Origin: Spirochaetia bacterium
Lineage (GTDB): Bacteria > Bacillota > Desulfotomaculia > Desulfotomaculales > JAJYZD01
Direction of reading: 5' to 3'
NCBI GenBank assembly: GCA_035530395.1
Contig: DATKUX010000074.1
Location: 1 to 61,206 of the forward strand
Length of the DNA: 61,206 nt
This document shows, piece after piece, positions 33,578-48,400 of the stretch. The translations under genes were made by a program, and so were the position numbers. Within the stretch, counting starts at the first letter, position 1, and each line of letters starts with the position of its first letter. Under the pieces are notes generated by a model that made no database searches, was not told the DNA's origin, and saw only the letters and a program-made list of their open reading frames with translations.

Positions 33578-33891
33578 TTTCGAAGTCTCTCCACTCTCCT
33601 GAGAAGATCTCCGCCTTGAACCACTCCACGACTGAAGTCGCTGGATTCCGAAGAATCTCGTAACTCAGACCGTTTCATCGCTTCCTGCTTCTCTGGATCG
33701 AGCCTTCGGAGAAGGTCTAACCGTTCCTCCACAGGCGAGCCCCAAGCCACTCTGTCCCTTTTTCCAAGAGATACAGTTGACCAACAAGGGCTCAGGAGCG
33801 ATGACCTGAAGCCTTTTTTCCTTTGCGCGGCGGGGGAAGAAACTCCGGGGCACCGCTTAGACAGTGGCGTCGGCCGAGACCGTTCCGGTGG

Positions 33892-33919
33892 ACACCTGCA
33901 GGCAAATCACCATAAGATA
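33892..33919 (+). promoter_or_regulatory. SigK-type promoter (AC-N17-CATAAGATA)
   Basis: AC at 33892-93, 17-nt spacer, CATAAGATA at 33911-19, followed by the conserved TTCTAGCCCA. Lies 87 nt upstream of ATG 34006. Confidence 0.5.
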
Positions 33920-34005
33920 TTCTAGCCCACGGGATGGGAGCGTTTAGCGATCCGTTCCGCGGGCTAGAATCACCGGAATTTCCCGAAAAGGAGGCGTACC
34001 TTGCC

Positions 34006-34482
34006 ATGACTACCCAAACCACCCTGCGCGTCAGACTGCCCGAGATATGTCTTCCAGACACGGTTTTCACGCCGGTGCCCCCAACGACAAGTTGTACTCC
34101 GCCGCCGGCAGGATCCACCGTCAGCTGCAACGTCAGCGGCGTGACCTGCACCGAGGTGTCCCGGACGAACAGCAGCACCGTCTCCGGCCTTCAGGACGTC
34201 AAGTTCCTGATCACGTTCACTCTCAACCTAAACATCATTAACCCTGCCGGCATAATCGTTTGCCAGACCAGTCAAACCTCGGAGTTTTTCCAGACCGTCA
34301 CACTCTACGCCCCGCCCTGGATACCGACGTTTTGCGTAGCCACCTTCGATTGCGGTCCCTGCATAGCGTTGGATGACACGACCTGCTGTTCCCTGGAAGT
34401 TTGCCTGACCGTCTGGACGTTCGTGCCGCAACGATCCGGAGGGCGACGTAACTCCTCTATGCGGCTTCTCCGGCAACTCTGA
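34006..34482 (+). CDS. cysteine-rich protein, divergent paralogue (E) of the 43-48 kb family
   Basis: AAGGAGG then ATG 34006. Shares VTCTEVSRT, F(L/F)ITFTLNLNIINPAG, EFFQTVTLYAP, FDCGPCIALDD and CCSLEVCL with copies A-D. Lacks their N-terminal PICIEVPQVLDFCFQ and C-terminal PPxCPP tail. Confidence 0.7.
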   Translation: MTTQTTLRVRLPEICLPDTVFTPVPPTTSCTPPPAGSTVSCNVSGVTCTEVSRTNSSTVSGLQDVKFLITFTLNLNIINPAGIIVCQTSQTSEFFQTVTLYAPPWIPTFCVATFDCGPCIALDDTTCCSLEVCLTVWTFVPQRSGGRRNSSMRLLRQL

Positions 34483-34595
34483 GCGTGGGGAGAGGACGCC
34501 TGCCGGCCGCTTCCCTGAAAAGCCCAGCCACCATCCGCGCCGTCCCTTCATATTATGCAGGAGATACAAGGTTAAACAACGGGCGGGGTGGCTTC

Positions 34596-36476
34596 ATGGG
34601 GGACAGAATCAGCCTCTGTATGATTGCGCGTAACGAGGAAGAGAACCTGGGGCGCTGCTTGGACAGCGCCGCCGGCTGTGTGGACGAGATCGTGCTGGTG
34701 GATACCGGCTCCGCGGACGCCACCGTGGAGGTTGCTAAAAGCTACGGGGCCAGGGTTCGGCAATCTCCCTGGCATGATGACTTTTCTATGGCCAGAAACC
34801 AGTCGCTGGCCGAGGCGGCGGGCGACTGGATCCTGGTCCTCGACGCCGACGAGGAATTGCCGCCGGAAGCGGTGCGTTTTTTGCGGGAGCAGGCGGGTCA
34901 GGAAGACACGGATGCCTGGACTTTCACCGTTGTGAGTAATGTGTCGACCGGTGAGGATCTATGTGCCACCCGGCACGCGGCCCTGCGCATGTTTCGCAAC
35001 CGGCCGGAGCACCGGTTCGAGGGTCTGGTGCACGAACAGGTGCGGCCCAGTATTTTGCGAAACAATCCCACCGCCGGCATCCGCCACGCCAACCTGGAGA
35101 TCCGGCACCACGGTTACGTGGTTGACGGTGGGGAAGCCGGGAACAAAACCGGGTACAAGATCCGCCTCCTGCAAAAAGCTCTGGCGGCCAAGCCCTTCGA
35201 TGCCTTCCAGAACTATAACCTGGGTGTCAGCTACCTGACGGCACGGGAACCGGAAAAGGCCCGTTCCCACTTTGAAATAGCCCATCTCGCTACGGACGCC
35301 CGATCCGGTTTTGCGCCGGCCCTCTACCGCAATTACGCCCTGTGCCTGTACGAACTGGGTGAGTTCACCGACTGTCTCAAGTTGCTGGACGAAGGCCTCG
35401 GCCATTTCCCCGCATACCCTGACCTCCACTTTCTGAAAGGCCGGCTTTTTTTTGAACTGGGACTGCTGGCCCAAGCCAGGGCGTGTTTGCAAGCCTGTAC
35501 AGGCTTTCGCCACGTTCCGCCCGAGTACCCTACCATGGAAGGTATCACCAGCTATCTAAGCGAGGAAAACCTGGCCGGGGTCGCACTAAAGGGAGACGAT
35601 CCAGACATGGCCCTAGAGCACCTGGGTGCCGCTTACAGCATGCGAAGATCCTACAGCGTGGCGCTCCGCCTGGCCCTGGTGCTGAAACAAAAGGGTCTTT
35701 CCCGTGCCGGGCTGCGGCAGGCCCTGACCGGGCGGTTTGACCTGGATGATCCGGCCATGGCCCGTCTCTTTTACGACCTCGGGGAATACGAGGCCTGTTT
35801 GGAGCACTTGGCCGGATCTGACGGCCAGCCCGCGTTTTCGTTACTCCGGGCCAGGTGTTTGACCCGCCTGGGACAGCCTGACGCCGCGCTTAAACTGTTG
35901 GATCAGTTGTCCGGGACCGGCGTTGATCCGGCGGAAGCGGAGCGGGAAGTATGGTTGGCCGGTTGGCTGAGGGGAGCGGAACAGGCCGCCCCGACGGAAG
36001 AAGCGGCAGATGAGGAAAACGCGGCGCTCATTGAAGAAGTGGCGTATGCCGCCTGGATCAGGGGCGAGCATGAACGGGCGCTGTCTCTGGCCGCCGCGGT
36101 GGCCGGGGAAAAGGCCCGCCTGAGGCTGGCCGGATATGCGCTGGGACATAATCAGCCCGTGGTGGTCGAGACTCTTCTGGCAGAAGAGGCACCCGGAGCA
36201 GCTGGCAGCTATTTAAAGGGCCAGGCCTGCGCCGAACGGGGGAGGCACCGGGAGGCTTTCCTCCATTATGTCGAAGCGGCTGGGGACAGGGGTAAAGAGA
36301 AAATGTGCTACTTACGGGCTCTGGAAGAAGTGATCATCCAGTGCCAGCTGATGGTGCTGCAACTCCTAAATGTCGAAGGACCAAACGGGGTACTCCAATT
36401 GGAGCTATTCCGGCTGGCTTCCCGGCAAAAAAAGCTTGGTCGGTATAAGGGGGAATCAACCGTTGACGCGTGGTAA
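34596..36476 (+). CDS. family-2 glycosyltransferase with C-terminal TPR-repeat region
   Basis: ISLCMIARNEEENLGRCL, VLVDTGSADAT, WHDDFSMARNQSL and ILVLDADEEL (GT2 DxD), followed by TPR-like helical repeats. Confidence 0.8.
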   Translation: MGDRISLCMIARNEEENLGRCLDSAAGCVDEIVLVDTGSADATVEVAKSYGARVRQSPWHDDFSMARNQSLAEAAGDWILVLDADEELPPEAVRFLREQAGQEDTDAWTFTVVSNVSTGEDLCATRHAALRMFRNRPEHRFEGLVHEQVRPSILRNNPTAGIRHANLEIRHHGYVVDGGEAGNKTGYKIRLLQKALAAKPFDAFQNYNLGVSYLTAREPEKARSHFEIAHLATDARSGFAPALYRNYALCLYELGEFTDCLKLLDEGLGHFPAYPDLHFLKGRLFFELGLLAQARACLQACTGFRHVPPEYPTMEGITSYLSEENLAGVALKGDDPDMALEHLGAAYSMRRSYSVALRLALVLKQKGLSRAGLRQALTGRFDLDDPAMARLFYDLGEYEACLEHLAGSDGQPAFSLLRARCLTRLGQPDAALKLLDQLSGTGVDPAEAEREVWLAGWLRGAEQAAPTEEAADEENAALIEEVAYAAWIRGEHERALSLAAAVAGEKARLRLAGYALGHNQPVVVETLLAEEAPGAAGSYLKGQACAERGRHREAFLHYVEAAGDRGKEKMCYLRALEEVIIQCQLMVLQLLNVEGPNGVLQLELFRLASRQKKLGRYKGESTVDAW

Positions 36477-38679
36477 ACTCAGTGTTTGCCTCATCGCCAA
36501 GAACGAATCCGTCAACATCGAGCGCTGTCTGAACAGCGTCAGGGAATGTGCGGACGAAATCGTGCTGGTGGACACGGGTTCCAGCGACGATACACCGGAA
36601 ATAGTGGAATCCATGGGCGCCAGGGTAATTCATACCCGCTGGACCGGCGATTTCAGCGTTGCCCGCAACCTCTCCCTGGAAGCCGCCACCGGCGACTGGA
36701 TCCTTTTTTTGGACTGTGATGAGGAGTTGTCCCCGGAAAGCCGCCAGGAACTTCAGGGCGTCCTGGACAATGACAACTATGAGGCTTATTTCGTCATAGT
36801 CGATAACATAACGGATAAAGGGCACGAACTAAGTGTCCCGAGTATAAGGCTTTTCAGAAACAGACCCTGCTTCCGGTTTAAAGGAAAGATCCACGAACAG
36901 ATCGTAAACTCGATCCTGGCCAACTATGGTCAGACCAGCTTAGGCCAAAGCGATATAGTAGTCCTCCACCATGGTTACCACCCCCATACGACCAACATCA
37001 GGGCCAAGATGAACCGCAACCTGGAAATATTGCTGACGTACGGCGAGGAGGAGAAAGACGGCTTCTTCTATTACAACCTGGGCACGGAATATTGGCGGTT
37101 GGGTCAAAGGGAGCAAGCCCTAGAGAACTACTCCCAGGCCCTGCAGTTGAGCAATCCCGCTCATAACTTTGGACCCATTCTGGTCAGAAGAACTATCAGC
37201 TTGCTGATGGAGCTCAACAGATACCGCTCGGCCATTGAACGGGCAAAGCATTACCAGACCCTGTTGCCCGACTACCATGACCTGGTATTCCTGGAGGGGG
37301 CCTGCCACTTGGCCTGCGGGCGGTATTCCCGCGCCGGGGCCCTCTTTAAACGCTACCTGAAGATGCCCCCGCCCCCGCGTGGATACCCCAAGGAACAGGG
37401 ATTCCACGGCTTCAGCCCCGAGACCATGCAGACCTGGGCCGCTGATCAGGCCCGGAAGGGGGCTGTGCCCAACCTGGCCGTCTGTATCGCCGGCGGCGGC
37501 ACAAAAGAAATGCTGGCCCGCTGCATCCGGAGCGTCCAGGAAATAGCCCGGGAGCTTATCTTCCTGGATCCAGGCTCCCCGCCAGGCTGTGGAGACGTCG
37601 CCTATCAGATGGGGGCCACGGTGGCAGCCCTGAAGCCGGGCCAAAGCCAAGACGCCGTTTGGGCGGAAGCTGCGGCCACGGCCACAACGAAGTGGGTCCT
37701 GGTGCTGTACTCCGACGAGGTGCTGGCCCCGGGGGGGCGTGAGGGCGTCAGCCGGATCATCAATAACCCTGAGCATCAGGGCTACCTGCTCAAACTACGC
37801 ACCTTTCTCGGCCCGGATATGTCCCAGGCGTCCTGCCATCTGAAAGGGGAAATGAGGCTCTTCCGGCGCTCCGGCAACCGGCCTCCTCCGCCGGGTCATG
37901 CCGGCATCGTCATTGACTGTCTGCGTTACACGTCCGCGGGGAAAGAACCAGCTCAAGCCGGTATGTCGGCCTACGACCATGCCCTGACGTGTTTCTACCG
38001 GCAAGACTTCCACGCGGCGGTCGCCGGTCTGGCCATGGTGAGTAGGGAGAATGCCCCTGGCCCCGCCTTCTTTTTCTTCTACGGGCTGTCTCTCATCAAT
38101 AGCGGGAACACTTCCGAGGCCCTGGCCGTACTGGAGGAGGGGGTGGCCGGGTACGGGGACTACACCGACCTGCGGTACCTGCGGGGTATAGCCCGCTTTC
38201 AACTGGGCGACGCCACTGCCGCGGAGCGCGACTTCGCCCGCTGTCTGGAAATGGGCGACGCTCCCTGGTTCAAGTACACGGTGAGCCCCGGAACCGGTAC
38301 GCACCGCTCCCTATGTTCCCTGGGCACCATTCTGGCCGAGCGTGGCGATACCCCCGGAGCTCTGGATCTTTTCCTCCGGGCGGCAAAAGTGGCGGACGGG
38401 TTCGAACCGGCCCTGGAAAGACTGGCCTTCCTGGTCGACCAATGGCCTCAGGCGCCCATGGCCTATTTAGAAAGCCGCGGCCTGCTCAACTCAGTGAGCC
38501 TGGGTATTTTGGCCGGCACCCTGGCCGGGAAGGGAAGATACCGGGAAAGCCTGGAGTACCTGTCCACGGCGGGCGAGCGCCTGGCTCAGGAACCCGTTCC
38601 CCGCAGCGTTGGGGCGTGGGTGCGGGCCATGGATCACCTGCTGGCCAACCTGAACCGGGAGGCCGGGACGGCCTTCTGA
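36463..38679 (+). CDS. family-2 glycosyltransferase - TPR - second degenerate GT-like module - TPR
   Basis: TTG 36463 after AAGGGGGAA, overlapping the upstream stop. LSVCLIAKNESVNIERCL, VLVDTGSSDDT and ILFLDCDEEL. An internal AVCIAGGG...FLDPGS...VLVLYSDEVL resembles a decayed second GT2 fold. Confidence 0.75.
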   Translation: MTRGKLSVCLIAKNESVNIERCLNSVRECADEIVLVDTGSSDDTPEIVESMGARVIHTRWTGDFSVARNLSLEAATGDWILFLDCDEELSPESRQELQGVLDNDNYEAYFVIVDNITDKGHELSVPSIRLFRNRPCFRFKGKIHEQIVNSILANYGQTSLGQSDIVVLHHGYHPHTTNIRAKMNRNLEILLTYGEEEKDGFFYYNLGTEYWRLGQREQALENYSQALQLSNPAHNFGPILVRRTISLLMELNRYRSAIERAKHYQTLLPDYHDLVFLEGACHLACGRYSRAGALFKRYLKMPPPPRGYPKEQGFHGFSPETMQTWAADQARKGAVPNLAVCIAGGGTKEMLARCIRSVQEIARELIFLDPGSPPGCGDVAYQMGATVAALKPGQSQDAVWAEAAATATTKWVLVLYSDEVLAPGGREGVSRIINNPEHQGYLLKLRTFLGPDMSQASCHLKGEMRLFRRSGNRPPPPGHAGIVIDCLRYTSAGKEPAQAGMSAYDHALTCFYRQDFHAAVAGLAMVSRENAPGPAFFFFYGLSLINSGNTSEALAVLEEGVAGYGDYTDLRYLRGIARFQLGDATAAERDFARCLEMGDAPWFKYTVSPGTGTHRSLCSLGTILAERGDTPGALDLFLRAAKVADGFEPALERLAFLVDQWPQAPMAYLESRGLLNSVSLGILAGTLAGKGRYRESLEYLSTAGERLAQEPVPRSVGAWVRAMDHLLANLNREAGTAF

Positions 38680-38714
38680 AGCCCAACCAGCCGGCAAGAT
38701 GGGGAAAAAGAAAA

Positions 38715-38739
38715 CGGGAGGGACTTATTTCCCCTCCCG
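38715..38739. terminator. bidirectional rho-independent terminator
   Basis: CGGGAGGG / CCCTCCCG stem, flanked by an A-run upstream and a T-rich tract downstream. Sits between convergent genes ending at 38679 (+) and 38760 (-). Confidence 0.65.
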
Positions 38740-38759
38740 CGGCTTTTCCTCCCGGGTCT

Positions 38760-39212
38760 TTACTCACACTTGGCGTCCTCGACACAGACCACAGTGGGCG
38801 CGCAGAGGTTGTGCACGGTGAAGGACAAATTGATTTCGCCGGATACCGTAGTAGGGGTCGTGGTAATGCTACGCGGATCGCAGTTCGCCGAGTAGGTGAC
38901 CTGGGGTTCGGTTGTTCCGCAGCAGGCGGTCAGGCCCAGGGGGAGGGGCAGGGAACCGCTCTTGCCGACAATGGTGCAGAAATCCCTGAACTTGGTTCCT
39001 TCGTTCAGATACTCATACTCGAACTGGGTGTCGAAGGAGAAGGACAGGGTGGGAGGCACGCCCGCCATGTTCACCGTCACGTTGTACAGGGCGATTGTGC
39101 AATGTTCTCCCGGGCCGACCGGGGAGAAAGCGGGAGTGGCGCAGGTGACCCTCTCCGACAGTTTCTCGACTATAGACGTCATCTCGTTGACACAAAGTTG
39201 CCTGATGGCCAT
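38760..39212 (-). CDS. hypothetical cysteine-containing beta-rich protein (10 Cys / 150 aa), no signal peptide
   Basis: Strong RBS AAGGAGG (rc of 39223-39229) upstream of ATG 39212. Family not recognised. Confidence 0.6.
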   Translation of the reverse strand: MAIRQLCVNEMTSIVEKLSERVTCATPAFSPVGPGEHCTIALYNVTVNMAGVPPTLSFSFDTQFEYEYLNEGTKFRDFCTIVGKSGSLPLPLGLTACCGTTEPQVTYSANCDPRSITTTPTTVSGEINLSFTVHNLCAPTVVCVEDAKCE

Positions 39213-39500
39213 ATCATATCAAACCTCCTTTCCATGATATCAACATATGGGAAAGTCGACGGAATGTTACTCGGAACCGTCGTATTCCTGCGAAGCCCAG
39301 GCCGCCGGTCTTCTAGAGCGCTACCTGCAGGGTAGTCCTAGCCAGATATAACCATGAGGACTTTATTCTCCAAGAAAAGAAATATAGTTCCGGAGGTAAC
39401 CGCTGTTTTAGCCCTACGAAAGACTGTTCGGGAATACGCTGGTTGCCTCATTTTCCATTTCCGGTTACAATGGGTTTCACTTCAACAAAGGAGGTAGTTC

Positions 39501-40178
39501 ATGGTTAAGCGAATGAAGTACTGGAAAGCAGGACTGGTTATCCTAACAGCGCTTGTGTATTCTCTTGCCGCGTCCGGTCCCTCGCAGGCAACTTCCCTTT
39601 CTACAGTAGAGCAATGGTACTCCACCGTTTACGGTTCGGCGGGGCAGCTCATCCAGACCGGCGCCACAGCGGCGGCATCGCCCACTCAGACCCTACCGAC
39701 TACCAACGGCCCCTCCAACTCCTCCCCGTTACCGGCTACCTCACCTTCCTCAGCCTCCGCCATTTGGTCCGGTTATAGTGCCGGCTACAGCCTCAACGCC
39801 GGTGAGCAGCAATTGCTGAGCCTGGTCAACCAGCAGCGGGTGGCGAATAAACTTCCCGCCTATACCGTCAACCTGAAACTGTCCTACCTGGCCCGGCTCA
39901 GGGCCCAGGACCTGGCTAACCACCAGAACCTTAGCCACTATTCGCCTACGTATGGTACGCCGCCTCAAATGGAACAAACAGCAGGCATCTCTGGCAACCC
40001 GATGGGAGCAGAGAATATCTGTGAAGGCCCCAGCGTGAGCGTAGACAACTCGGCCCTGTTTAACAGTCCTCCCCACCGGGCTAACCTGCTCAATCCCCAG
40101 GAAACCCAAATCGGCCTGGGTGTGGTTCAGAGCTCGAATGGAATCGTGTGGGTAAGCGAGTTGTTCCTGGGCAACTAA
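39501..40178 (+). CDS. secreted CAP/SCP (PR-1-like, YkwD-type) domain protein
   Basis: AAAGGAGG RBS, signal peptide, S/T/P linker, CAP domain (LSLVNQQR...HYSPTYGTP...GAENI...SPPHRANLL...IGLGV). Confidence 0.8.
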   Translation: MVKRMKYWKAGLVILTALVYSLAASGPSQATSLSTVEQWYSTVYGSAGQLIQTGATAAASPTQTLPTTNGPSNSSPLPATSPSSASAIWSGYSAGYSLNAGEQQLLSLVNQQRVANKLPAYTVNLKLSYLARLRAQDLANHQNLSHYSPTYGTPPQMEQTAGISGNPMGAENICEGPSVSVDNSALFNSPPHRANLLNPQETQIGLGVVQSSNGIVWVSELFLGN

Positions 40179-40198
40179 CCAAATAGCGCCGGATGCAA

Positions 40199-40233
40199 GA
40201 CGGCGGGTCCTCTTCAGAGCGCCCGCCGTCTTT
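40199..40233 (+). terminator. rho-independent terminator
   Basis: GACGGCGGG / CCCGCCGTC stem followed by TTT. Confidence 0.6.
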
Positions 40234-40479
40234 GCGTCTGTCAACGACAACCTGCCGTTACGCAGGTTTCAGCCGGCGGGGGAGGAGGGGGTCCGGCGGG
40301 GATCCTCCGCCAGGCAGCGTCCAGATATAACCATGAAGCCTGAATTCTGCAAATAAAGAAATATAGTACCGGACATGCCAGCTGTTTGAGCCTAACGAAA
40401 GTATGTTCGGGAATACGCCGGTTGCCTCATTTTCCATTCCCGGGTTATCATGGCTCTACTTCAACAAAGGAGGTAGTTC

Positions 40480-41394
40480 ATGGTTAAGCGAGTGAGGTAC
40501 TGGAAGGCAGGAATGGTTTTCGTAACGGCACTGGCGTTTTCGATCGGCGCGGCCGCTCCTTCGGGGGCAACTTCCCTTTCTTCAGTAGCGCAATGGTACA
40601 CCACTGTCTACGGGGGGCAATTGATCCAGGTCGGCTCTTCCCCTGCAACAGCATCGCCCACCCAGACCCTACCGGCCTCCACCACCAGCACCGCTACCAG
40701 CACCACCAGCACCACAAGCCCGGCGACCCCTAGCACCACGAGCACCACCATCAGCCCGGCTCCGGCCACCTCAACCTCAGAAGCGAACCTGCTCAGCTAT
40801 TACCTGACCCAATACGAACAGACTGTGGCACCGGTTTCGACACCGGCTCCCGCTCCGGCTCCCGCTCCCGCTCCGGCTCCCGCTCCGGCTCCGGCTCCCG
40901 CTCCGGCTCCCGCTCCGACACCAACTCCGACACCAACACCAACACCAACTCCGACAACGCTTCCGTCGGCCTCCGCTATCTGGTCCGGTTACAGCGCAAA
41001 CTACAGCCTCAACGCCGGTGAGCAGCAATTGCTGAGCCTGGTCAACCAGCAGCGGGTAGCGAACAGTCTTCCCGCCTACACCGTCAACTCGAAACTGTCC
41101 TACCTGGCCCATCTCAGGGCTCAGGACATGGCCAATCACCAGGTGCTTACCCACTATTCGCCTACTTATGGTACGCCGCCTCAAATGGAAGAAACCGCAG
41201 GCATCTATGGGAATCCGATGGGGGCGGAGAATATCTGTGAAGGACCTAGCGTGACCGTAGACAACTCGGCCCTGTTTAACAGTCCTCCCCACCGGGCCAA
41301 CCTGCTCGATCCCCAGGAAACTCAAATCGGCCTGGGTGTGGTTCAGAGCTCGAATGGAATCGTGTGGGTAAGCGAGTTGTTCCTGGGCAACTAA
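40480..41394 (+). CDS. secreted CAP/SCP domain protein, paralogue with expanded (PA)n(TP)n linker
   Basis: About 170 bp of upstream sequence, the signal peptide and the CAP domain nearly duplicate those of 39501-40178. The linker contains ~12 PA and ~6 TP dipeptides. Confidence 0.8.
   Translation: MVKRVRYWKAGMVFVTALAFSIGAAAPSGATSLSSVAQWYTTVYGGQLIQVGSSPATASPTQTLPASTTSTATSTTSTTSPATPSTTSTTISPAPATSTSEANLLSYYLTQYEQTVAPVSTPAPAPAPAPAPAPAPAPAPAPAPAPTPTPTPTPTPTPTTLPSASAIWSGYSANYSLNAGEQQLLSLVNQQRVANSLPAYTVNSKLSYLAHLRAQDMANHQVLTHYSPTYGTPPQMEETAGIYGNPMGAENICEGPSVTVDNSALFNSPPHRANLLDPQETQIGLGVVQSSNGIVWVSELFLGN
40843..40956 (+). repeat. hexanucleotide tandem repeat (CCGGCTCCCGCT... then ACACCAACTCCG...) encoding PA and TP dipeptide runs
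   Basis: Direct reading of 40843-40956. Confidence 0.9.
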
Positions 41395-41418
41395 CCAAAT
41401 AGCACAAGGGACAAGGCG

Positions 41419-41454: not shown

Positions 41455-41528
41455 GTGCTCTAATATTTCCGCAGTGGTTTATATTCCTTATAAGCCAACG
41501 GCATCCTGCCGGGTTCCACGGGCTTCAT

Positions 41529-42665
41529 TCACCGCAGGGGCGAACCCGGCCCGCAAGAGTCGTTTTGCCCGTCTGACCGGTTGGATTCCGTTCCACCTCC
41601 TGTACCCGCGGCAGGAGCAGGCCTCCCCAGCTGAGGACGGTAAAACGGTTGGGCCTCCTGACGTTGCCCGGCGGTCGACGACGGCCGGGTGAAGGGTGCC
41701 ATGGACACCGGATAGGGGGAGGCCGGGTACTTAAAACCGGCTGCCGGAGCCCGGGGCAAAGTCGATGCAGGCGCATGCCGCCCGAACAGGGCGGGAGGGA
41801 GTCCCGGCTGGCGGGCCTGGAGATTCACCATGGCTGCCCTGGCCGTTTTCATCGCCGCCTGGTGGGAGCTTGTGGTCACCACCGGGTTGACCGGAGCGGA
41901 CGGAGGGGCCGGAGCGGAATCCTCTCCGAGGTTGAATACCGTTTTAGCGGCGGCGGTCAGCCGGGCTTCCGGGACAACCTGTTTGAGGCGCCGCCAAAAG
42001 ACCTGCACCGTCTCTTCCCGGCTGGTGTCACTTCCTCCTTCGGAACCGGTCCGCTCACCGCTGGAGAGACTGGTTCCCTCGCCGCTAAAATGGCGGGCCA
42101 GACCCTGCTTCAAGCCTGCGGCCCAGTGCTTAACCGCCCCGGGCGGCGCCGGCGGGCATTCAATCAGGACCGCAGGCATACTGGCCGGCAGCGGCCCACG
42201 GGGCGACTCCAGGAAAAGAACCTCCGTGCCGGGCGTCAACCGGACAGCCGAAGATAACTCCTCAGTCAGCAGGGACGCCAGGCGGGTACTGCCGTAATAC
42301 TTCCCGGGCACTATCACCAGGGGCGCGTGCTCTGCGCCGTCGGTCAGCCATAACAATAAATGGCCGCCCAGGGGCAGGGAAGCGCGATGACCGGCCAGAC
42401 GCACCAGGTTGACCCTGGCGGAGGCCGCCATCAGAAGTTCTTGCAGGGCGCCTCCCAGGCTAAGCGAAGTACCCTGTGCTTCGCTTTCCACGATCAAGGC
42501 TACTTGCCGGCCGGTGAAAGGGGAATTGACCAGCAGCACCCCTTCAGCGGAAGACCGGTGGAAGGACTGGCCCAGCTCTCTGGCAACCTGGGCAGCCTTT
42601 TCGATTTGCCCGGCCGGGAGGTGGCAGAGGCCGTCGAGTTCCCATACCACCAGTATTTCGTCCAC
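41529..42665 (-). CDS. hypothetical protein: Amidase_3-like fold apparently lacking zinc ligands + Pro/Ala-rich C-terminal region
   Basis: GTG 42665 after AGGTGA. MPAVLIECPP, YYGSTRLASLL and the LKQGLARHF layout recall N-acetylmuramoyl-L-alanine amidase (CwlD-type), but there is no DPGHGG/His-Glu motif. The tail is low complexity. Confidence 0.35.
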   Translation of the reverse strand: MDEILVVWELDGLCHLPAGQIEKAAQVARELGQSFHRSSAEGVLLVNSPFTGRQVALIVESEAQGTSLSLGGALQELLMAASARVNLVRLAGHRASLPLGGHLLLWLTDGAEHAPLVIVPGKYYGSTRLASLLTEELSSAVRLTPGTEVLFLESPRGPLPASMPAVLIECPPAPPGAVKHWAAGLKQGLARHFSGEGTSLSSGERTGSEGGSDTSREETVQVFWRRLKQVVPEARLTAAAKTVFNLGEDSAPAPPSAPVNPVVTTSSHQAAMKTARAAMVNLQARQPGLPPALFGRHAPASTLPRAPAAGFKYPASPYPVSMAPFTRPSSTAGQRQEAQPFYRPQLGRPAPAAGTGGGTESNRSDGQNDSCGPGSPLR

Positions 42666-42693
42666 AATAATCACCTGCCTGTTCAAGCTGCTA

Positions 42694-42721
42694 TATTCTA
42701 CGCTGGCCGATCGCCTGTTGT
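42694..42721 (-). promoter_or_regulatory. near-consensus SigK-type promoter (AC-N17-CGTAGAATA, one mismatch)
   Basis: Reverse strand: AC (rc of 42720-21), 17-nt spacer, CGTAGAATA (rc of 42694-42702). Lies ~29 nt upstream of GTG 42665. Confidence 0.35.
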
Positions 42722-43009
42722 GCGCCTGGCAACCCGTTAAAACGCCTCTCAAAGCGGGGCATGCGAAACCTGGGGTGCCTTATCCGGCAGAATTTTCGAT
42801 TAAGGGTTAGCTTGACCGAACAAACACAAAGGACGAATTCCTTAGCTGGGGTGTTTAATTTATTTTTGGTATCATTTGCCATACGAGGCAACACTTGTTT
42901 TGACTTTAAGGCCCATACAGGTATACGTTACCAGTTTCGTCATTGTATTCCTTTCCACGGTACTGGGCCCTTTTTTATCTCAGATACCGAAAATTTTACT
43001 GCCGGTTTC

Positions 43010-43037
43010 ACCAAGATAAGGCAATACACATAGAATA
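43010..43037 (+). promoter_or_regulatory. SigK-type promoter (AC-N17-CATAGAATA)
   Basis: AC 43010-11, 17-nt spacer, CATAGAATA 43029-37, then TTCTAGCCCA. Lies 78 nt upstream of ATG 43115. Confidence 0.55.
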
Positions 43038-43114
43038 TTCTAGCCCAGCGGGATTGAAAATATCGAGCTGGTAACAGCTGAAGCGATAGCTGATTAGAGG
43101 AGGTAAAGTTAATC

Positions 43115-43675
43115 ATGCCTGACCCCATTTGCATTGAAGTACCCCAGGTATTAGACTTTTGTTTCCAGACGGAGTCCCAGGACGTGTGTCTCCCTCTCGC
43201 GGCGTTTACCCTCGTGGTACCTACGCTTCTTACTTGCACGGGCAATACCGCTGCCTGCACCCTGACCAGCATAAGCTGTACCGAGGTGTCCCGGACCGCC
43301 ACTACCACCAGCGGTTTCTTTGACGTCACGTTCCTGGTTTCGTACTCGCTCACCATCAATATCGTGAACTCGGCCGGCGTCGTTATCGCCCACTCCACCA
43401 ATACCGCCAGCTTCTTTAAGACCGTCGTCCTCTGCGCGCCTGATGGAGCCATCACGGCTTGCGATATCACCTTCAGCTGCGGCCCCTGCATTTGCATCGA
43501 CGACGTTGTGTGCTGTTCCTTCAACCTGTGCATTGTCATCAAGTCTATATTCCCGGTGGTTCTTTCGGTGGTCGGCACCGTCCTCACCCCGACGCTGTGC
43601 GTCATGCCGAGCCCCTTCCCGCCGGTCTGTCCGCCCATGGTTCCGACCATCTGCAACAACTGCCCGCCGGTGTAG
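43115..43675 (+). CDS. cysteine-rich protein, copy A (186 aa, 18 Cys)
   Basis: RBS AGAGGAGGTAAAG, 7 nt before the ATG. No signal peptide. N-terminal PICIEVPQVLDFCFQ, core ISCTEVSRT...FFDVTFLVSYSLTINIVNSAG, C-terminal CGPCICIDDVVCCSFNLC...TPTLCVMPSPFPPVCPP...CNNCPP. Confidence 0.8.
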   Translation: MPDPICIEVPQVLDFCFQTESQDVCLPLAAFTLVVPTLLTCTGNTAACTLTSISCTEVSRTATTTSGFFDVTFLVSYSLTINIVNSAGVVIAHSTNTASFFKTVVLCAPDGAITACDITFSCGPCICIDDVVCCSFNLCIVIKSIFPVVLSVVGTVLTPTLCVMPSPFPPVCPPMVPTICNNCPPV

Positions 43676-43695
43676 GTTTAATCCGGGGAGGGACA

Positions 43696-43720
43696 GCAGG
43701 CTGCTCACGGGGCAGCCTGC
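43696..43720 (+). promoter_or_regulatory. intercistronic GC stem-loop (GCAGGCTGC/GCAGCCTGC), no U-tract
   Basis: Conserved in position and sequence after all four copies (A-D). Confidence 0.55.
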
Positions 43721-43780
43721 CCCGCTTTCCGGCATGTAGAACCGGCAAGTATGCCTGCATGGATACAGTACTGGATAAAA

Positions 43781-43892
43781 ATGCTTAAGCCTGTCTGGAC
43801 GGGAGGTCCGGGGAAGGGCTCCGGCAGTCGCCATACCCGGCGTAAAGAAAGTTATAATCGCCTGCCCAGGTCGGGCGGAAGTGCAATACGAC
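43781..43892 (+). pseudogene. decayed remnant of the first HMA-like gene, truncated at the tandem-duplication junction
   Basis: ATGCTTAA... aligns to 44577 onward with a ~27-nt deletion (frameshift). It ends at ...GTGCAATACGAC and is joined directly to the AGAGGAGGTAAAGTTAATC RBS of copy B. Confidence 0.7.
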
Positions 43893-43911
43893 AGAGGAGG
43901 TAAAGTTAATC

Positions 43912-44472
43912 ATGCCTGACCAGATTTGCATTGAAGTACCCCAGGTATTAGACTTTTGTTTCCAGACGGAGTCCCAGGACGTGTGTCTCCCTCTCGCGGC
44001 GTTTACCCTCGTGGTGCCGACGCTTCTTACTTGCACCGGCCACACAGCTTCCTGCACGCTGACCAGCATAAGCTGCACCGAGGTATCTCGGACCGCCACC
44101 ACCACCGCCGGTTTCTTTGACGTCACGTTCCTGGTTTCGTACTCGCTCACCATCAATATCGTGAACTCGGCCGGCGTCGTTATCGCCCACTCCACCAATA
44201 CCGCCAGCTTCTTTAAGACCGTCGTCCTCTGCGCGCCTGACGGAGCCAGCACGGCTTGCGATATCACCTTCAGCTGCGGCCCCTGCATTTGCATCGACGA
44301 CGTGGTGTGCTGTTCCTTCAACCTGTGCATTGTCATCAAGTCCATATTCCCGGTGGTTCTTTCGGTTAGCGGCACCGTTCTCACCCCGACGCTGTGCGTC
44401 ATGCCGAGCCCCTTCCCGCCGGTCTGTCCGCCCATGGTTCCGACCATCTGCAACAACTGCCCGCCGGTATAG
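43912..44472 (+). CDS. cysteine-rich protein, copy B (186 aa; 6 substitutions relative to A)
   Basis: Same RBS and architecture as copy A. No promoter of its own, because of the duplication junction. Confidence 0.8.
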   Translation: MPDQICIEVPQVLDFCFQTESQDVCLPLAAFTLVVPTLLTCTGHTASCTLTSISCTEVSRTATTTAGFFDVTFLVSYSLTINIVNSAGVVIAHSTNTASFFKTVVLCAPDGASTACDITFSCGPCICIDDVVCCSFNLCIVIKSIFPVVLSVSGTVLTPTLCVMPSPFPPVCPPMVPTICNNCPPV

Positions 44473-44492
44473 GGCTTAACCGGGGAGGTAGA

Positions 44493-44517
44493 GCAGGCTA
44501 CGCGCTGAGCAGCCTGC
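44493..44517 (+). promoter_or_regulatory. intercistronic GC stem-loop
   Basis: GCAGGCT / AGCCTGC arms, homologous to 43696-43720. Confidence 0.45.
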
Positions 44518-44576
44518 CCCGCTTTCCGGTGTGCTCATCCGGCGATTATGCCTTTAGGAGGTAGTGCTGGATAAAA

Positions 44577-44789
44577 ATGCTTAACACTGTAGCGATCAAT
44601 GTCACCCAGCCCCTGGACGGGAGGACCGGGGAAAGACTCCGGCAGTCGCTCGTTGCCCTGCCCGGCGTAAAGAAAGTAACAATCGCCTACCCAAGCAGGG
44701 TGGAAGTGCAGTACGACGCGGCCGAGACGCGGGCCGGCAGTCTTATGACGGTCATACGGGCTCACGGTTTAAGAACCGGCTTAAAGTGA
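44577..44789 (+). CDS. small HMA-fold (ferredoxin-like beta-alpha-beta-beta-alpha-beta) protein lacking the CxxC metal site, type 1
   Basis: MLNTVAINVTQPLDGRTGERLRQSLVALPGVKKVTIAYPSRVEVQYDAAE...LMTVIRAHGL aligns position by position with the CopZ-type pattern (V.GM.C..C....L..L.GV..V.V......V.V.(F/Y)D......I...I...G), with GMxCxxC replaced by QPLDGRTG. Confidence 0.65.
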   Translation: MLNTVAINVTQPLDGRTGERLRQSLVALPGVKKVTIAYPSRVEVQYDAAETRAGSLMTVIRAHGLRTGLK

Positions 44790-44893
44790 TGCCAGAATAA
44801 GTAGGGGCGGTCGCCTCTATTAAAGCGTCCCCGTGGCAGCAGGACGGGTGGCCCGGTGCTGATCGGGGATACATGGCGAGGGGAGTGACCCAG

Positions 44894-45118
44894 GTGCCCA
44901 CCACGGTTACACTCAAGACAGGGCTGTGGCTCGGCCGGGAGGAAGCGGCCGAGTTAAAGAGCAAACTGGCCAAGCTCAGGTATGTCCTCCAGGTGGATGT
45001 GCCCTTTCCCGACCGGGTGGTAATAACCTACGAAAACGGCAGGTTGGGATTATCCACACTGAAGGCCGCCATCGCCAGCCGGACCGCTGTTCCTGACGTC
45101 AGGGTAACGCGGCGGTGA
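44894..45118 (+). CDS. small HMA-fold-like protein lacking CxxC, type 2
   Basis: GTG 44894 after GAGGGGAG. VPTTVTLKTGLWLGREEAAELKSKLAKLRYVLQVDVPFPDRVVITYENGRLGLSTLKAAI shows the same beta-alpha-beta-beta-alpha pattern. Confidence 0.55.
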   Translation: MPTTVTLKTGLWLGREEAAELKSKLAKLRYVLQVDVPFPDRVVITYENGRLGLSTLKAAIASRTAVPDVRVTRR

Positions 45119-45161
45119 GGAGGACGCAAATAGGGGGGCCGGCGGCCTCCCGGGAATTCCG

Positions 45162-45187
45162 GACCGGCTTTGCGCCGGTCTTTTTTT
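45162..45187 (+). terminator. rho-independent terminator of module B
   Basis: GACCGGC-TTTGC-GCCGGTC followed by T7. Confidence 0.8.
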
Positions 45188-45305
45188 GTTCCTCCGGCCC
45201 GGACGCAGCCGCCGGTTTCACCGGAAAGCCCTGGACGGTAACCTGGTCCACTGTTGCTGACTATCCTATATTATCCGAGACTGGATAAACTTTCCGCAAT
45301 CGTGC

Positions 45306-45333
45306 ACCAGTAAAAGGAAATATACATAAAATA
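45306..45333 (+). promoter_or_regulatory. SigK-type promoter (AC-N17-CATAAAATA)
   Basis: AC 45306-07, 17-nt spacer, CATAAAATA 45325-33, then TTCTAGCCAG. Lies 78 nt upstream of ATG 45411. Confidence 0.5.
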
Positions 45334-45410
45334 TTCTAGCCAGGGGGGAAGGCCTTCAGCAAGCCAGCCCCGATCGGCGGCATCGTAACATGAGGAGGTA
45401 AACAAAAATC

Positions 45411-45995
45411 ATGGCTAATCCCATTTGCATCGAAGTTCCCCAGGTATTAGACTTCTGTTTCCAGGCGGAGACAACGGACATTTGTCTCCCGGTCTTCGGG
45501 TTCGTGCCCATTGCCCCCGCGCTGACCTGCACTTGTGCGACGGGCAACACGGTCGCGTGCAGCGTCGTCGCCGTCAGCTGCACCGAGATCGTTCCGGCAC
45601 CCGGCCGGGTCCCCAGCACCACACCCGGATTCTTTAACGTTACCTTCGCGATTTCCTTCTCCCTCGCCATCACCCTTGTTAGCCCGACCGGCGTCGCTAC
45701 CTGCGCCACCTTCGTGACCTCCAGCCCCTTCACGAAGACCGTCGTGCTGTGCGCACCCGACGGGGCGATCACGGTTTGCGAGGTTACCCCGGCCTGCGGT
45801 CTCGGGATCTGTATCGACGACGTGGTCTGTGTTTCGGTTAACCTGTGTCTGGTTTTCAAATCGGTATTTCCAGTGGTCCTGTCCGTGATCGGCACCGTCC
45901 TCACCCCGACGCTGTGCGTCATGCCGAGCCCCTTCCCGCCGATCTGCCCGCCCCTGCCGCCGACGATCTGTGCTCCCTGCTCGTTGTTGACGTAA
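45411..45995 (+). CDS. cysteine-rich protein, copy C (194 aa, most divergent of the tandem set)
   Basis: RBS GAGGAGGTAAAC. Conserved PICIEVPQVLDFCFQ, KTVVLCAPDGAIT, ICIDDVVC and TPTLCVMPSPFPPICPP. The middle of the protein is diverged. Confidence 0.8.
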   Translation: MANPICIEVPQVLDFCFQAETTDICLPVFGFVPIAPALTCTCATGNTVACSVVAVSCTEIVPAPGRVPSTTPGFFNVTFAISFSLAITLVSPTGVATCATFVTSSPFTKTVVLCAPDGAITVCEVTPACGLGICIDDVVCVSVNLCLVFKSVFPVVLSVIGTVLTPTLCVMPSPFPPICPPLPPTICAPCSLLT

Positions 45996-46004
45996 AGCAG
46001 GGAA

Positions 46005-46039
46005 GCAGAGCAGGCTGCTCCCGGAGCAGCCTGCTCTGC
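46005..46039 (+). promoter_or_regulatory. intercistronic perfect ~15-bp GC stem-loop
   Basis: GCAGAGCAGGCTGCT / AGCAGCCTGCTCTGC. Confidence 0.55.
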
Positions 46040-46092
46040 TCCGCGGCACGAAAATCCGGCAATTATGCCCGTAGGAGGTAGTAGGGATAAAG

Positions 46093-46299
46093 ATGCTTAG
46101 CAAGATAACGGTCAATACCACTGCGGCCCTGCATGGAAAGTCTGGAGAAAGGCTCCGGCGGTCGATCATGACGATGCCGGGCGTGCAGCAGGTAACCATT
46201 ACCTACCCGAAACAGGTGGAAGTGCACTTCGACGGTAGCGAGACGGGGGCCGGCCACCTTATTACGGCCATACGGGCCCTCAGTATGAGGACCGTCTGA
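46093..46299 (+). CDS. HMA-fold protein lacking CxxC, type 1 (module C)
   Basis: MLSKITVNTTAALHGKSGERLRRSIMTMPGVQQVTITYPKQVEVHFD... is a paralogue of 44577-44789. Confidence 0.6.
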   Translation: MLSKITVNTTAALHGKSGERLRRSIMTMPGVQQVTITYPKQVEVHFDGSETGAGHLITAIRALSMRTV

Positions 46300-46408
46300 A
46301 CATGATGCTGGAACAAATAGGGGTCGCTGCCCCTATTTGTTTGCCGGCACGAAAACGAGGAAAGGTCACAGGTACCGATTTCGAACATCGACAGGAGGGA
46401 GTGTGACG

Positions 46409-46630
46409 GTGCCCGTCATCGTCACACTCAAAACCAGTCTATGGCCCGGCGCGGAGGAAGGAGATAACTTTATGGGCATAGTGGTGAGAATTAAGGGCGT
46501 CACCCCGGTTGGGGTACTGCGTCCCGGTCGAATGACCGTATCCTTCGACAACGCTAGGATGGGCTTCTCGCCCCTGGGAAGGGTAGTGAGACGCGGGGTA
46601 GGAACAGGCGCCAATGTACAGCGGAAATGA
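46409..46630 (+). CDS. HMA-fold-like protein lacking CxxC, type 2 (module C)
   Basis: GTG 46409, 8 nt after AGGAGGGA. VPVIVTLKTSLWPGAEEG... is a paralogue of 44894-45118. Confidence 0.5.
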   Translation: MPVIVTLKTSLWPGAEEGDNFMGIVVRIKGVTPVGVLRPGRMTVSFDNARMGFSPLGRVVRRGVGTGANVQRK

Positions 46631-46669
46631 GGAGGACGCAAATAGGGGGCCGGCGGCCCCCGGGATACC

Positions 46670-46699
46670 GGACCGGCTTTAGGCCGGTCCTTTCTTTTT
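46670..46699 (+). terminator. rho-independent terminator of module C
   Basis: GGACCGGC-TTTAG-GCCGGTCC followed by TTTCTTTTT. Confidence 0.8.
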
Positions 46700-47023
46700 G
46701 GCCGCACAACCTGCCGGTTCGCGCTCCTATATCTTACCCGGAAGGATGCCTCTTTGGCATTGGCACCGCAGGGACAAGCTGACCGGCGTTGATCCATAGA
46801 ATATTGCGCTGTAGTCCCGACTAATTACTCCAAATCCAGAATCGTGCCTATTGATTGTGATCCTATGTTTAAACCAGGTAGTCCTAGTAAACGGTATTAT
46901 AGACAATAAATGTTAGTATGCCGGGAAACCCCAACCAAAAGACGGAGCGGCATCTATTTTTTGTTAAAACGCGGAATATGCCTCCCTAAAGCAGAAAACT
47001 TTGTGCCGGTTTCACCAATATAA

Positions 47024-47051
47024 GGCAATACACATAGGATATTTCAGCCCA
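47024..47051 (+). promoter_or_regulatory. SigK-type promoter (AC-N17-CATAGGATA)
   Basis: AC 47024-25, 17-nt spacer, CATAGGATA 47043-51. The surrounding GCCGGTTTCACCAAnATAAGGCAATACACATAG is conserved with the copy-A promoter. Confidence 0.55.
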
Positions 47052-47121
47052 CTGGAGTTGGAGCTTTAATCGAACCGGCAATGACCGGCTTAGTCACTCA
47101 AAAGAGGAGGTAAAGTTTACC

Positions 47122-47691
47122 ATGCATCATGACTCAACCATTTGCATTGAGGTGCCCCAGGTATTAGACTTTTGTTTCCAGACGGAGCAACAGGATGTAT
47201 GTCTCCCTCTCTCGGCGTTTACGCCGACAGTAGCCGGAGTGGCTTGTAGCTGCACCAACAGCACGGCCAGCTGCACGCTGACCACCATCAGCTGCACCGA
47301 GGTGTCCCGTACCGCGAGCACCACCGCCGGTTTCTTTGACGTTACGTTCCTGGTTTCGTACTCGCTCACTATCAATATCGTAAACTCGGCCGGGATCGTT
47401 ACTTGCACTTCCACCAACAGCGCAAGCTTCTTCAAAACCGTCATCCTCTGCGCACCCGACGGCGCCAGCACGGCATGTGACCTCACCTTCAGCTGCGGTC
47501 CCTGCATTTGTATCGACGACGTGGTCTGCTGTTCCTTCAACCTGTGTCTGGTCCTCAAGTCTATATTCCCCGTAGTTTTGTCCGTGACCGGCACCGTCCT
47601 TACCCCGACCCTGTGCGTAACGCCGAGTCCGTTCCCGCCCATCTGTCCGCCCGTAGTCCCGACGCTCTGCAACAACTGCCCGCCGATGTAA
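47122..47691 (+). CDS. cysteine-rich protein, copy D (189 aa)
   Basis: RBS AGAGGAGGTAAAG. Same architecture and motifs as A and B, with about 85% identity by eye. Confidence 0.8.
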   Translation: MHHDSTICIEVPQVLDFCFQTEQQDVCLPLSAFTPTVAGVACSCTNSTASCTLTTISCTEVSRTASTTAGFFDVTFLVSYSLTINIVNSAGIVTCTSTNSASFFKTVILCAPDGASTACDLTFSCGPCICIDDVVCCSFNLCLVLKSIFPVVLSVTGTVLTPTLCVTPSPFPPICPPVVPTLCNNCPPM

Positions 47692-47702
47692 AAGTCAATC
47701 GA

Positions 47703-47737
47703 GGGAGGGCAGGCTGCCTACGGGGCAGCCTGCTCCC
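47703..47737 (+). promoter_or_regulatory. intercistronic GC stem-loop
   Basis: GGGAGGGCAGGCTGCC / GGCAGCCTGCTCCC. Confidence 0.55.
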
Positions 47738-47795
47738 TTAGCTAAGACCAATCCGGCGATAATGGCCGGACGGAGGGAGGTAGAACCGGACTAAA

Positions 47796-48005
47796 ATGCT
47801 AACCAGGATAGCGGTTAACGTCAAGCCGGCCATGGACAGGAGGACCGGTCAACGACTCCGGCAGTTGCTCGTGGCTATGCCGGGTGTCAAGCAGGTAACC
47901 ATCGCCTACCCGAACCGGGTGGAAGTGCAATATGACGAAGCGGAGGCCAGTGCCAGCGGCTTTTTGACGGTCATTCGAACTCACGGCTTAAGAACCGGTT
48001 TATAA
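47796..48005 (+). CDS. HMA-fold protein lacking CxxC, type 1 (module D)
   Basis: MLTRIAVNVKPAMDRRTGQRLRQLLVAMPGVKQVTIAYPNRVEVQYDEAE... Confidence 0.6.
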   Translation: MLTRIAVNVKPAMDRRTGQRLRQLLVAMPGVKQVTIAYPNRVEVQYDEAEASASGFLTVIRTHGLRTGL

Positions 48006-48105
48006 CTGGCCTGGACAGACAGGGGGTTGCCCCTGTCTGTTTGTCGTGAGCAGGGGCGAAAGGGCCGGTGCCGGTTTGCGGACAACATTGAAGGGAGTGG
48101 GAAAA

Positions 48106-48327
48106 GTGCCTACCATGGTTACACTCAAAACGGGCCTTTTTTTGAGCCCGGAAGAAGGGGATAAGTTAAAGAGCAGGCTCACCAGGTTCAAGGGCGTCAA
48201 CCGCGTTGACGTGTTGTATCCGGACCGCCTGCTCATAACCTACGACAGCCCCAGGGTAACTTTGTCGACCCTCAAGGCGGCAGTGAACGCCAAGGAACCA
48301 AAAAGCATCAGTGTAAACCGGAAATGA
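48106..48327 (+). CDS. HMA-fold-like protein lacking CxxC, type 2 (module D)
   Basis: GTG 48106 after [68 protein letters not shown]. Confidence 0.55.
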
Positions 48328-48371
48328 GGGGGACGCAAATAGGGGGGACCGGGGGTCCCGCCGTAGTGAAA

Positions 48372-48400
48372 AGACCGGCGTTGCACCGGTCTTTTCTTTG
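48372..48400 (+). terminator. rho-independent terminator of module D
   Basis: AGACCGG-CGTTGCA-CCGGTCT followed by TTTCTTTG. Confidence 0.75.

Follow-up and report, generated by a model that had tools for sequence, protein, structure and literature searches.

A 14.5-kb block that looks like a late-sporulation cluster for Cys-rich outer spore-layer proteins in an uncultured Peptococcaceae-like spore-former

Do Cys-rich proteins, large glycosyltransferases, secreted CAP proteins and an amidase-like protein that are encoded side by side build and decorate one spore surface, or do their genes merely adjoin? The question is raised by a 14.5-kb block at positions 33,890 to 48,400 of contig DATKUX010000074.1 (GenBank assembly GCA_035530395.1, deposited as a Spirochaetia bacterium and placed by GTDB in the Desulfotomaculia). 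We analysed 61,206 nt of this contig, hereafter the window. The uncultured host looks like a Peptococcaceae-type, or at least Peptococcaceae-like, spore-former, and the block looks like a late-sporulation cluster of Cys-rich outer spore-layer proteins and conserved partner genes. With somewhat better than even confidence, we read it as about eight transcription units, mostly under mother-cell promoters, that would assemble the outermost spore layer and glycosylate it. What is deeply conserved is a smaller unit, a Cys-rich protein together with a YkwD-type CAP protein and an HMA-like partner, of which the block is a clade-specific elaboration. An open reading frame (ORF) map of the window placed all genes named in a preliminary description of this DNA at or near their expected positions. 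The spore-surface role proposed there stands at the level of sequence (relatives matching NF052457, mother-cell-type promoters, YkwD-like CAP proteins and enzymes resembling protein glycosyltransferases), and the proposal that the 14.5 kb form one unit is the weaker part.

The core of the block would be a tandemly amplified, Cys-rich all-beta family, distant kin of BMQ_0737, whose members probably self-assemble and cross-link via their Cys-rich N- and C-terminal segments. The genes of this family and one associated remnant are as follows.

34006-34482, plus strand: cys5, a divergent BMQ_0737-like paralogue
43115-43675, plus strand: cys1, a BMQ_0737-like Cys-rich protein
43776-43892, plus strand: remnant of an HMA-like gene, cut down and apparently frameshifted
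43912-44472, plus strand: cys2, 97% identical to cys1, without a promoter of its own
45411-45995, plus strand: cys3, a Cys-rich paralogue with a SigK-type promoter
47122-47691, plus strand: cys4, a Cys-rich paralogue with a SigK-type promoter

The tandem genes are 64-97% identical to the first copy. A 797-bp tandem duplication (window 43096-44690) gave rise to cys1 and cys2, and at its junction the remnant is fused to the cys2 ribosome-binding site (repeat families D9 and D10, with a spacing of 797 nt). Four tandem modules had been described; the four Cys-rich copies are all there, and the complete modules number only three, the first copy being trailed by the remnant. The fifth paralogue is divergent, as had been noted: cys5 is 38% identical to cys1 of the tandem four, and lacks both the N-terminal CIEVPQVLDFCFQ (CIEV..DFCFQ) segment and the Cys/Pro-rich C-terminal tail. 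Its orthologue in the related locus L001 is 68% identical. There, a DUF3231 gene (769-1155) lies between the dNMP kinase gene and cys5; the window has none, and the gap at this place measures only ~330 nt.

Close homologues of the Cys-rich proteins are very rare: 5.8 billion proteins yielded 14 clusters, each of them from Peptococcaceae or metagenome-assembled genomes (MAGs) of Bacillota. Among 1.84 billion cluster representatives, a profile search returned 100 relatives, and 53 of the 62 that were scanned matched NF052457, the NCBIfam model of the BMQ_0737 family morphogenetic spore coat protein (best E 9e-21). Pfam matched neither the window's Cys-rich proteins nor any of these 62 relatives. 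Among the window proteins, cys5 matched NF052457 with 23.1 bits (E 7e-5), short of the curated cut-off of 71 bits. Because the scores lie below the cut-off and the link runs via relatives, we regard the window proteins as distant relatives in the BMQ_0737 superfamily and not as curated members. In B. megaterium, BMQ_0737 belongs to the outermost layers of the spore, whose integrity requires it (PMC4656864, citing Manetsberger et al. 2014); the family is barely present in the literature searched. The window proteins share with BMQ_0737 of Bacillus (Priestia) megaterium QM B1551 a detectable homology, a length of ~150-210 aa, the richness in Cys and mother-cell-type promoters. They differ in scoring far under the cut-off, in their five copies, in the co-transcription with HMA-like genes, in the linkage to CAP and GT2-TPR genes, and in their anaerobic Peptococcaceae-type host.

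The putative promoters are of a mother-cell type. The B. subtilis consensus for SigK is AC-16/17-CATAnnnTA, and we used a strict motif (AC-N16-18-CATAnnnTA) and a relaxed form ending in T[AG]. A CAC-N17-CATAnnATA element that fits the consensus is located 86-95 nt 5' of the start codons of cys5, cys1, cys3 and cys4. The extended CATAnnATATTCTAGCCCA motif common to these four promoters occurs 4 times in the window vs 0.06 expected. The putative sites in the block are listed below.

33892-33919, plus strand: putative SigK-type promoter of cys5, AC-N17-CATAAGATA, strict match
34530-34557, plus strand: putative SigK-like site before GT1, CATATTATG, near-consensus, relaxed motif
39241-39267, minus strand: putative SigK/SigE-like site before p150, AC-N16-CATATGTTG, relaxed motif
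42694-42721, minus strand: putative SigK-like site 28 nt upstream of the amidase-like gene, AC-N17-CGTAGAATA, one mismatch
43010-43037, plus strand: putative SigK-type promoter of cys1, strict match
45306-45333, plus strand: putative SigK-type promoter of cys3, strict match
47014-47041, plus strand: putative SigK-type promoter of cys4, strict match

The preliminary description had given cys5 a SigK-type promoter and the amidase-like gene a one-mismatch site, and both were located. Another copy of the strict motif lies 283 nt 5' of CAP1. The 61-kb window holds 13 distinct relaxed sites, 7 of which are inside the block. A 15-sequence alignment served as the query for related loci, and 37 distant loci were examined, from Pelotomaculum, Desulfotomaculaceae, Ammonifex, Thermaerobacter, Limnochordia-like and other Bacillota. 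The strict motif is found within 220 nt upstream of 7 of their 37 family genes (background 0.7%, p ~6e-9), and the relaxed motif upstream of 25 of them (background 1.8%).

About eight transcription units, on both strands, can be inferred from the block: cys5-GT1-GT2, p150 alone, CAP1 alone, CAP2 alone, the amidase-like gene alone, cys1-cys2-hmaA2-hmaB2, cys3-hmaA3-hmaB3 and cys4-hmaA4-hmaB4. Three strong terminators were found.

38714-38740: terminator hairpin between the convergent GT2 and p150 genes (10-bp stem with 7 GC pairs, then a T-run)
45161-45181: terminator after hmaB2
46670-46690: terminator after hmaB3

A search between cys5 and GT1, which are 113 nt apart, found no terminator. The cys5 leader folds stably (whole leader -34.7 kcal/mol, z -2.7), with a hairpin at its start (33925-33965); the 5' leaders of cys1, cys3 and cys4 fold no better than shuffled sequences. 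A GC-rich hairpin (GAGCAGGCTGC...GCAGCCTGC), conserved but lacking a T-run, is found 3' of the Cys-rich stop codons and before the HMA-like gene (43668-43755, 44465-44552 and 45982-46069). This element may act as a partial terminator or affect mRNA stability, setting the ratio of structural to accessory protein.

The two conserved partners of the Cys-rich genes encode small HMA-like proteins and CAP proteins.

39501-40178, plus strand: CAP1, secreted YkwD-like protein with an S/T/P-rich linker (PF00188, 1.1e-11, 46.1 bits)
40480-41394, plus strand: CAP2, duplicate of CAP1; its linker is long, S/T-rich and of (AP)n(TP)n type (PF00188, 1.7e-11, 45.4 bits)
44577-44789, plus strand: hmaA2, HMA-fold-like, no CxxC
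44873-45118, plus strand: hmaB2, HMA-fold-like, no CxxC
46093-46630, plus strand: hmaA3 and hmaB3
47796-48327, plus strand: hmaA4 and hmaB4, the last genes in the block

The small genes after cys2, cys3 and cys4 gave a weak PF00403 match (E 0.007; 17.1 bits vs a gathering cut-off of 24.8 bits). Cys is absent from all six sequences, which by these measures lie outside the HMA family proper. The Cys-rich genes would be co-transcribed with one or two such HMA-fold proteins lacking the metal-binding Cys, possibly their assembly or chaperone partners.

Both CAP proteins exceed the PF00188 gathering cut-off (21.1 bits) and have Sec-type leaders, in agreement with the earlier description of two duplicated secreted proteins. 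Their duplication takes in ~160 nt of upstream DNA (39342-39500 vs 40321-40479, 81% identity, families D5 and D6), and a SigA-like promoter lies in the shared stretch. Rfam detected neither a riboswitch nor any further known RNA in the conserved CAP leaders, its sole match in the window being a tRNA. In the YkwD model (TIGR02909), CAP1 scored 98.7 and CAP2 93.5 bits, under the cut-off of 171 bits. They thus resemble the YkwD/YlbC CAP proteins in their C-terminal CAP/YkwD-like domain and secretion signal, and differ from them in these sub-cut-off scores. The YkwD domain has been reported solely in spore-formers, with YlbC under the control of sigma-F (PMC6568419). A pairing of CAP genes with BMQ_0737-like genes was not met in the literature searched.

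The association with both partners extends beyond the close clade. In 23 of the 37 distant loci the Cys-rich gene has a CAP gene no more than 3 kb away; of the 25 loci whose flanks reach 3 kb or more on either side, 18 do. An HMA-like small gene lies directly downstream of the Cys-rich gene in 13 distant loci, and Pelotomaculum has all three genes. A secreted YkwD-type CAP protein is a widely conserved neighbour of the family.

The other genes of the block would be clade-specific additions, namely the cys5-GT1-GT2 operon, p150 and an amidase domain of CwlD type that is predicted to be dead and carries a Pro-rich tail.

34596-36476, plus strand: GT1, GT2-family GT-A domain plus TPR region, 626 aa (PF00535 at 1.7e-22 and TPR families)
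36463-38679, plus strand: GT2, GT-A and TPR, then a second degenerate GT-A-like region and TPR, 738 aa (PF00535 at 1.2e-31 in two stretches)
38760-39212, minus strand: p150, an orphan 150-aa protein with 10 Cys and without a signal peptide, 63% identical in close relatives only
41529-42665, minus strand: probable Amidase_3-like protein of degenerate CwlD type; its tail is disordered and Pro-rich, and a C..GSPLR motif is conserved at the C-terminus

The two glycosyltransferases described after cys5 bear out as GT2-TPR enzymes, with matches to Glycos_transf_2 and many TPR families. The start of GT2, placed by the ribosome-binding site and the L001 orthologue, is a TTG at 36463; because it overlaps the GT1 stop, translational coupling is suggested. 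Both enzymes have an N-terminal GT2-family GT-A domain with a DxD motif (LDADEE and LDCDEE in the translations), followed by TPRs and without a signal peptide, which is the layout of SgtA and GmaR. Overall, GT1 and GT2 resemble, as judged from their sequences, cytoplasmic protein or peptide glycosyltransferases. Their closest functional precedent, by analogy, would be C. difficile SgtA, a GT-A enzyme with C-terminal TPRs that is encoded immediately upstream of bclA3 and adds beta-O-linked N-acetylglucosamine (beta-O-GlcNAc) to Thr of the exosporium protein BclA3 (PMC7157674). The sgtA-bclA3 locus of Clostridioides difficile is likened here by layout: the gene of a cytoplasmic enzyme with GT-A and C-terminal TPRs adjoins a spore-surface structural gene (PMC7157674). 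It differs in that the candidate acceptor in the block is a Cys-rich beta protein and not a collagen-like one, and that the two enzymes are much larger, one having a second GT-like region. By this analogy, GT1 and GT2 would most probably act in the cytoplasm of the mother cell, glycosylating Ser/Thr (or Cys) of spore-surface proteins ahead of their assembly or in its course, with cys5 as the prime candidate acceptor.

A convergent Cys-containing protein without a signal peptide had been described; this is p150, with 10 Cys and an N-terminus that is not hydrophobic. It is unmatched in Pfam and NCBIfam. As a candidate sixth Cys-rich paralogue it was rejected, with an hhalign probability of 2%.

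The amidase-like family is also small (just 6 clusters in 5.8 billion proteins). The protein had no match in NCBIfam, nor, even at E<=10, in Pfam or among PDB sequences by phmmer and profile searches, its AlphaFold2 model was unusable (predicted local distance difference test, pLDDT, of 38), and it has neither a signal peptide nor a transmembrane segment. Its only detectable relative outside its clade is the Amidase_3 protein of the distant locus L045 (6268-7515, minus strand), which matches CwlD TIGR02883 at 4.9e-27 and lies 2.5 kb from a CAP-Cys pair. The layout of the L045 protein is that of the window protein, with a short N-terminal region, the amidase domain and a long Pro-rich tail. The profile of the window's amidase-like family aligns to the L045 protein by hhalign over 170 columns (probability 86%, E 5e-6); in this alignment GHGG is replaced by EAQG and SIH by VIV, so that both zinc His are gone, and both Glu (E78 and E171) are invariant. 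A "dead amidase" had been proposed for want of visible zinc ligands, and because the zinc His are replaced in this one profile comparison, a catalytically dead CwlD-type domain is supported. In comparison with CwlD/Amidase_3 proteins generally, the remote homology and both Glu are kept, and the zinc His, signal peptide and transmembrane segment are missing while a long Pro-rich tail is present.

The main rival to a spore-layer cluster is a patchwork. On this view the functional module goes no further than the Cys-rich gene with its HMA-like partner and the CAP gene; the cys5-GT operon, p150 and the dead amidase would serve sporulation or the surface independently, and would lie between the dNMP kinase and adk genes of this clade by chance. 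We consider this possible, although on the unlikely side. Several observations weigh against our favoured reading, and those on synteny speak for the patchwork. The full block is kept in related MAGs, where block proteins are 53-86% identical and the flanking housekeeping proteins 72-87%, and this complete synteny is confined to close relatives. Because those relatives are close, the synteny proves little, and the linkage of the GT, p150 and amidase-like genes is seen just where it is expected anyway. The synteny check suggested in the preliminary description therefore came out in two parts: close relatives keep the whole block, and distant loci keep only the CAP and HMA-like genes beside the Cys-rich gene. 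No homologues of p150 or the amidase-like protein were found in the distant loci (tblastn, E<=1e-3), and both genes are restricted to the close clade. An 82%-identical close paralogue lies in an unrelated neighbourhood without GT, p150, amidase-like or other block partners. In most Desulfotomaculia loci no GT2-TPR gene lies 10 kb or less from the family gene, and GT4, CgeB-like and GT2 queries brought up no extra glycosyltransferases in the Desulfotomaculia loci by tblastn. The division into about eight separate units on both strands also fits a patchwork.

Other points bear against the spore-layer reading itself. NF052457 did not match cys1-cys4 directly (for cys1 and cys4, nothing at E<=0.1 and E<=0.01), and their predicted tie to this family is transitive. 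The relaxed promoter motif was chosen only after inspection of the data. The core promoters of the CAP genes are SigA-like and not SigK-like (TTGCCT-17-TACAAT, the CAP1 copy at 39443-39471). Despite their S/T/P-rich linkers, the CAP proteins are unlikely substrates of cytoplasmic glycosyltransferases because they are Sec-exported. A six-frame scan of the window found no collagen-like acceptor, and nucleotide-sugar genes are absent from the block.

Four observations stand against the patchwork. The family member cys5 lies directly upstream of GT1 with no terminator in the gap, the SigK-like sites are concentrated in the block, the L045 CwlD-like amidase of the same architecture occurs near a CAP-Cys pair, and a second lineage has GT2-TPR arrays beside the pair that survived rearrangement. 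This unrelated lineage is the only further one with GT2-TPR genes in that position (L037/L047 and L046). In L037/L047 (1-10600), a trio of GT2-TPR genes, one more glycosyltransferase gene and the genes for a DUF6385 and a collagen-like GPP-repeat protein are followed by the CAP and Cys-rich genes. L046 (1-10600) is 68% identical to L037/L047 and keeps the association though its GT array is inverted; it encodes three GT2-TPR proteins, DUF6385, GT4 and GT2 proteins, unnamed proteins of ~200 aa, a CAP protein and a BMQ_0737-like protein. The source labels of L037 conflict (Aneurinibacillus vs Bacillota bacterium). L044, L038 and L040 have glycosyltransferases of other families or sugar genes next to the pair, those of L044 being CgeB/YkvP-like, GT4, UDP-glucose dehydrogenase and epimerase genes.

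A second alternative is that the Cys-rich proteins form disulfide-linked endospore appendages resembling Ena fibres, the rest of the block being accessory to the fibre, which we think improbable. The confident AlphaFold2 model of cys4, built from a 62-sequence alignment (pLDDT 89.4; predicted template modelling score, pTM, 0.80), has six strands of 16-21 residues, and an elongated all-beta core of this kind between Cys-rich N- and C-terminal segments would suit a fibre subunit, as would the tandem gene amplification and the fusion of some relatives to beta-propeller or repeat display domains. On the other side, Pfam is empty for these proteins and there is hence no match to DUF3992, which we take to be the Ena family. 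Searched by Foldseek with the pLDDT-89 model, PDB and BFVD gave nothing at E<=0.001 (best E 0.07 and 0.0065, TM ~0.2), and a sequence-profile search of PDB with the Cys-rich family also found nothing. As neither structure nor sequence profile gave a match, an Ena/DUF3992-type or other known fold is unsupported. The sole characterised relative, BMQ_0737, is an outer-layer integrity protein (PMC4656864).

In four relatives (P0017, P0032, P0045 and P0054), large FG-GAP-like or NHL-like repeats are joined to the Cys-rich domain or interrupt it, or an extra domain follows at the C-terminus (domain types read by eye). This suggests that the Cys-rich domain can anchor display modules, and a role as anchor or scaffold would fit because some relatives are fused to repeat regions.

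That the GT2-TPR enzymes act on flagellin, like GmaR, or on a secreted glycocin-type peptide, like SunS and ThuS, with cys5 adjacent by chance, is very improbable because the block is without flagellar or glycocin context (its ORFs and Pfam matches, and those of its flanks, include no small precursor peptide, no C39/ABC exporter, no thiol-disulfide oxidoreductase and no flagellar gene), although GmaR (2e-28), SunS (3.5e-26) and ThuS (2.3e-18) are the best solved relatives of GT2 among PDB sequence matches and the SunS model TIGR04195 is the best NCBIfam match, since GT1 and GT2 score just 58.6 and 99.6 bits, far under its cut-off of 350 bits, and share their unit with a spore-coat-family gene that has a putative SigK-type promoter. 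GmaR (the Listeria flagellin O-GlcNAc transferase) and SunS/ThuS (glycocin S-/O-glycosyltransferases) resemble the window enzymes in the GT-A domain and the following helical region, and all are cytoplasmic modifiers of proteins or peptides; the flagellar or bacteriocin setting is what differs.

The spore-layer cluster that we favour has precedents. The crust and spore-polysaccharide loci of B. subtilis are cotVWXYZ, cgeAB/cgeCDE and sps. As in the block, Cys-rich self-assembling outer-layer proteins are encoded near glycosyltransferases there, under late mother-cell control; the block differs in having no CotY/Z, CgeB or Sps homologues, and a CgeB/YkvP-like gene was seen only in L044. Cys-rich outer-layer proteins and glycosyltransferases at one locus are therefore already known, from the B. 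subtilis crust, cge and sps loci and from sgtA-bclA3. What is new here is a barely studied family without a solved fold, its two conserved partners, and the GT2-TPR linkage in two lineages. A bolder form of this reading seems doubtful to us: that the Cys-rich protein, the YkwD-type CAP protein and the Cys-free HMA-fold protein make up an undescribed spore-surface module across anaerobic and thermophilic Bacillota, with a beta fold that has no solved relative, and that this module is amplified here, where SunS/GmaR-like enzymes would O- or S-glycosylate cys5 and give a glycosylated surface independent of BclA.

The block is flanked by the dNMP kinase gene and by adk, which was identified via L001 synteny and Pfam and starts at 48398, directly after the block. 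Further features of the window were as follows.

20000-24100: low-GC island (0.41-0.45 vs ~0.60), probably an integrated element or defence island
21448-23322: Schlafen-group-3-like helicase/STAND NTPase gene carried by this island
23946-24023, minus strand: tRNA-Pro(CGG) adjoining the island
29608-30993: DUF815 ATPase, adjacent to the following ORF
31258-32091, just upstream of the block: fused nucleotidyltransferase and HepT-like ORF (MNT/HepT toxin-antitoxin type)
54260-55543, 55618-56280, 57557-58483, 58649-59239 and 60422-61126, downstream: two GT2 genes, Methyltransf_24, a DUF2953 protein and an extracytoplasmic function (ECF)-type sigma factor

The outer layers of spores beyond Bacillus and Clostridioides are almost unstudied. 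If our reading is wrong, the block is merely a set of adjacent hypothetical sporulation genes. If it is right, the locus supplies candidate surface proteins and a candidate surface glycosylation for spores of the Desulfotomaculia type, and in cys5 with GT1/GT2 a candidate pair of acceptor and enzymes.

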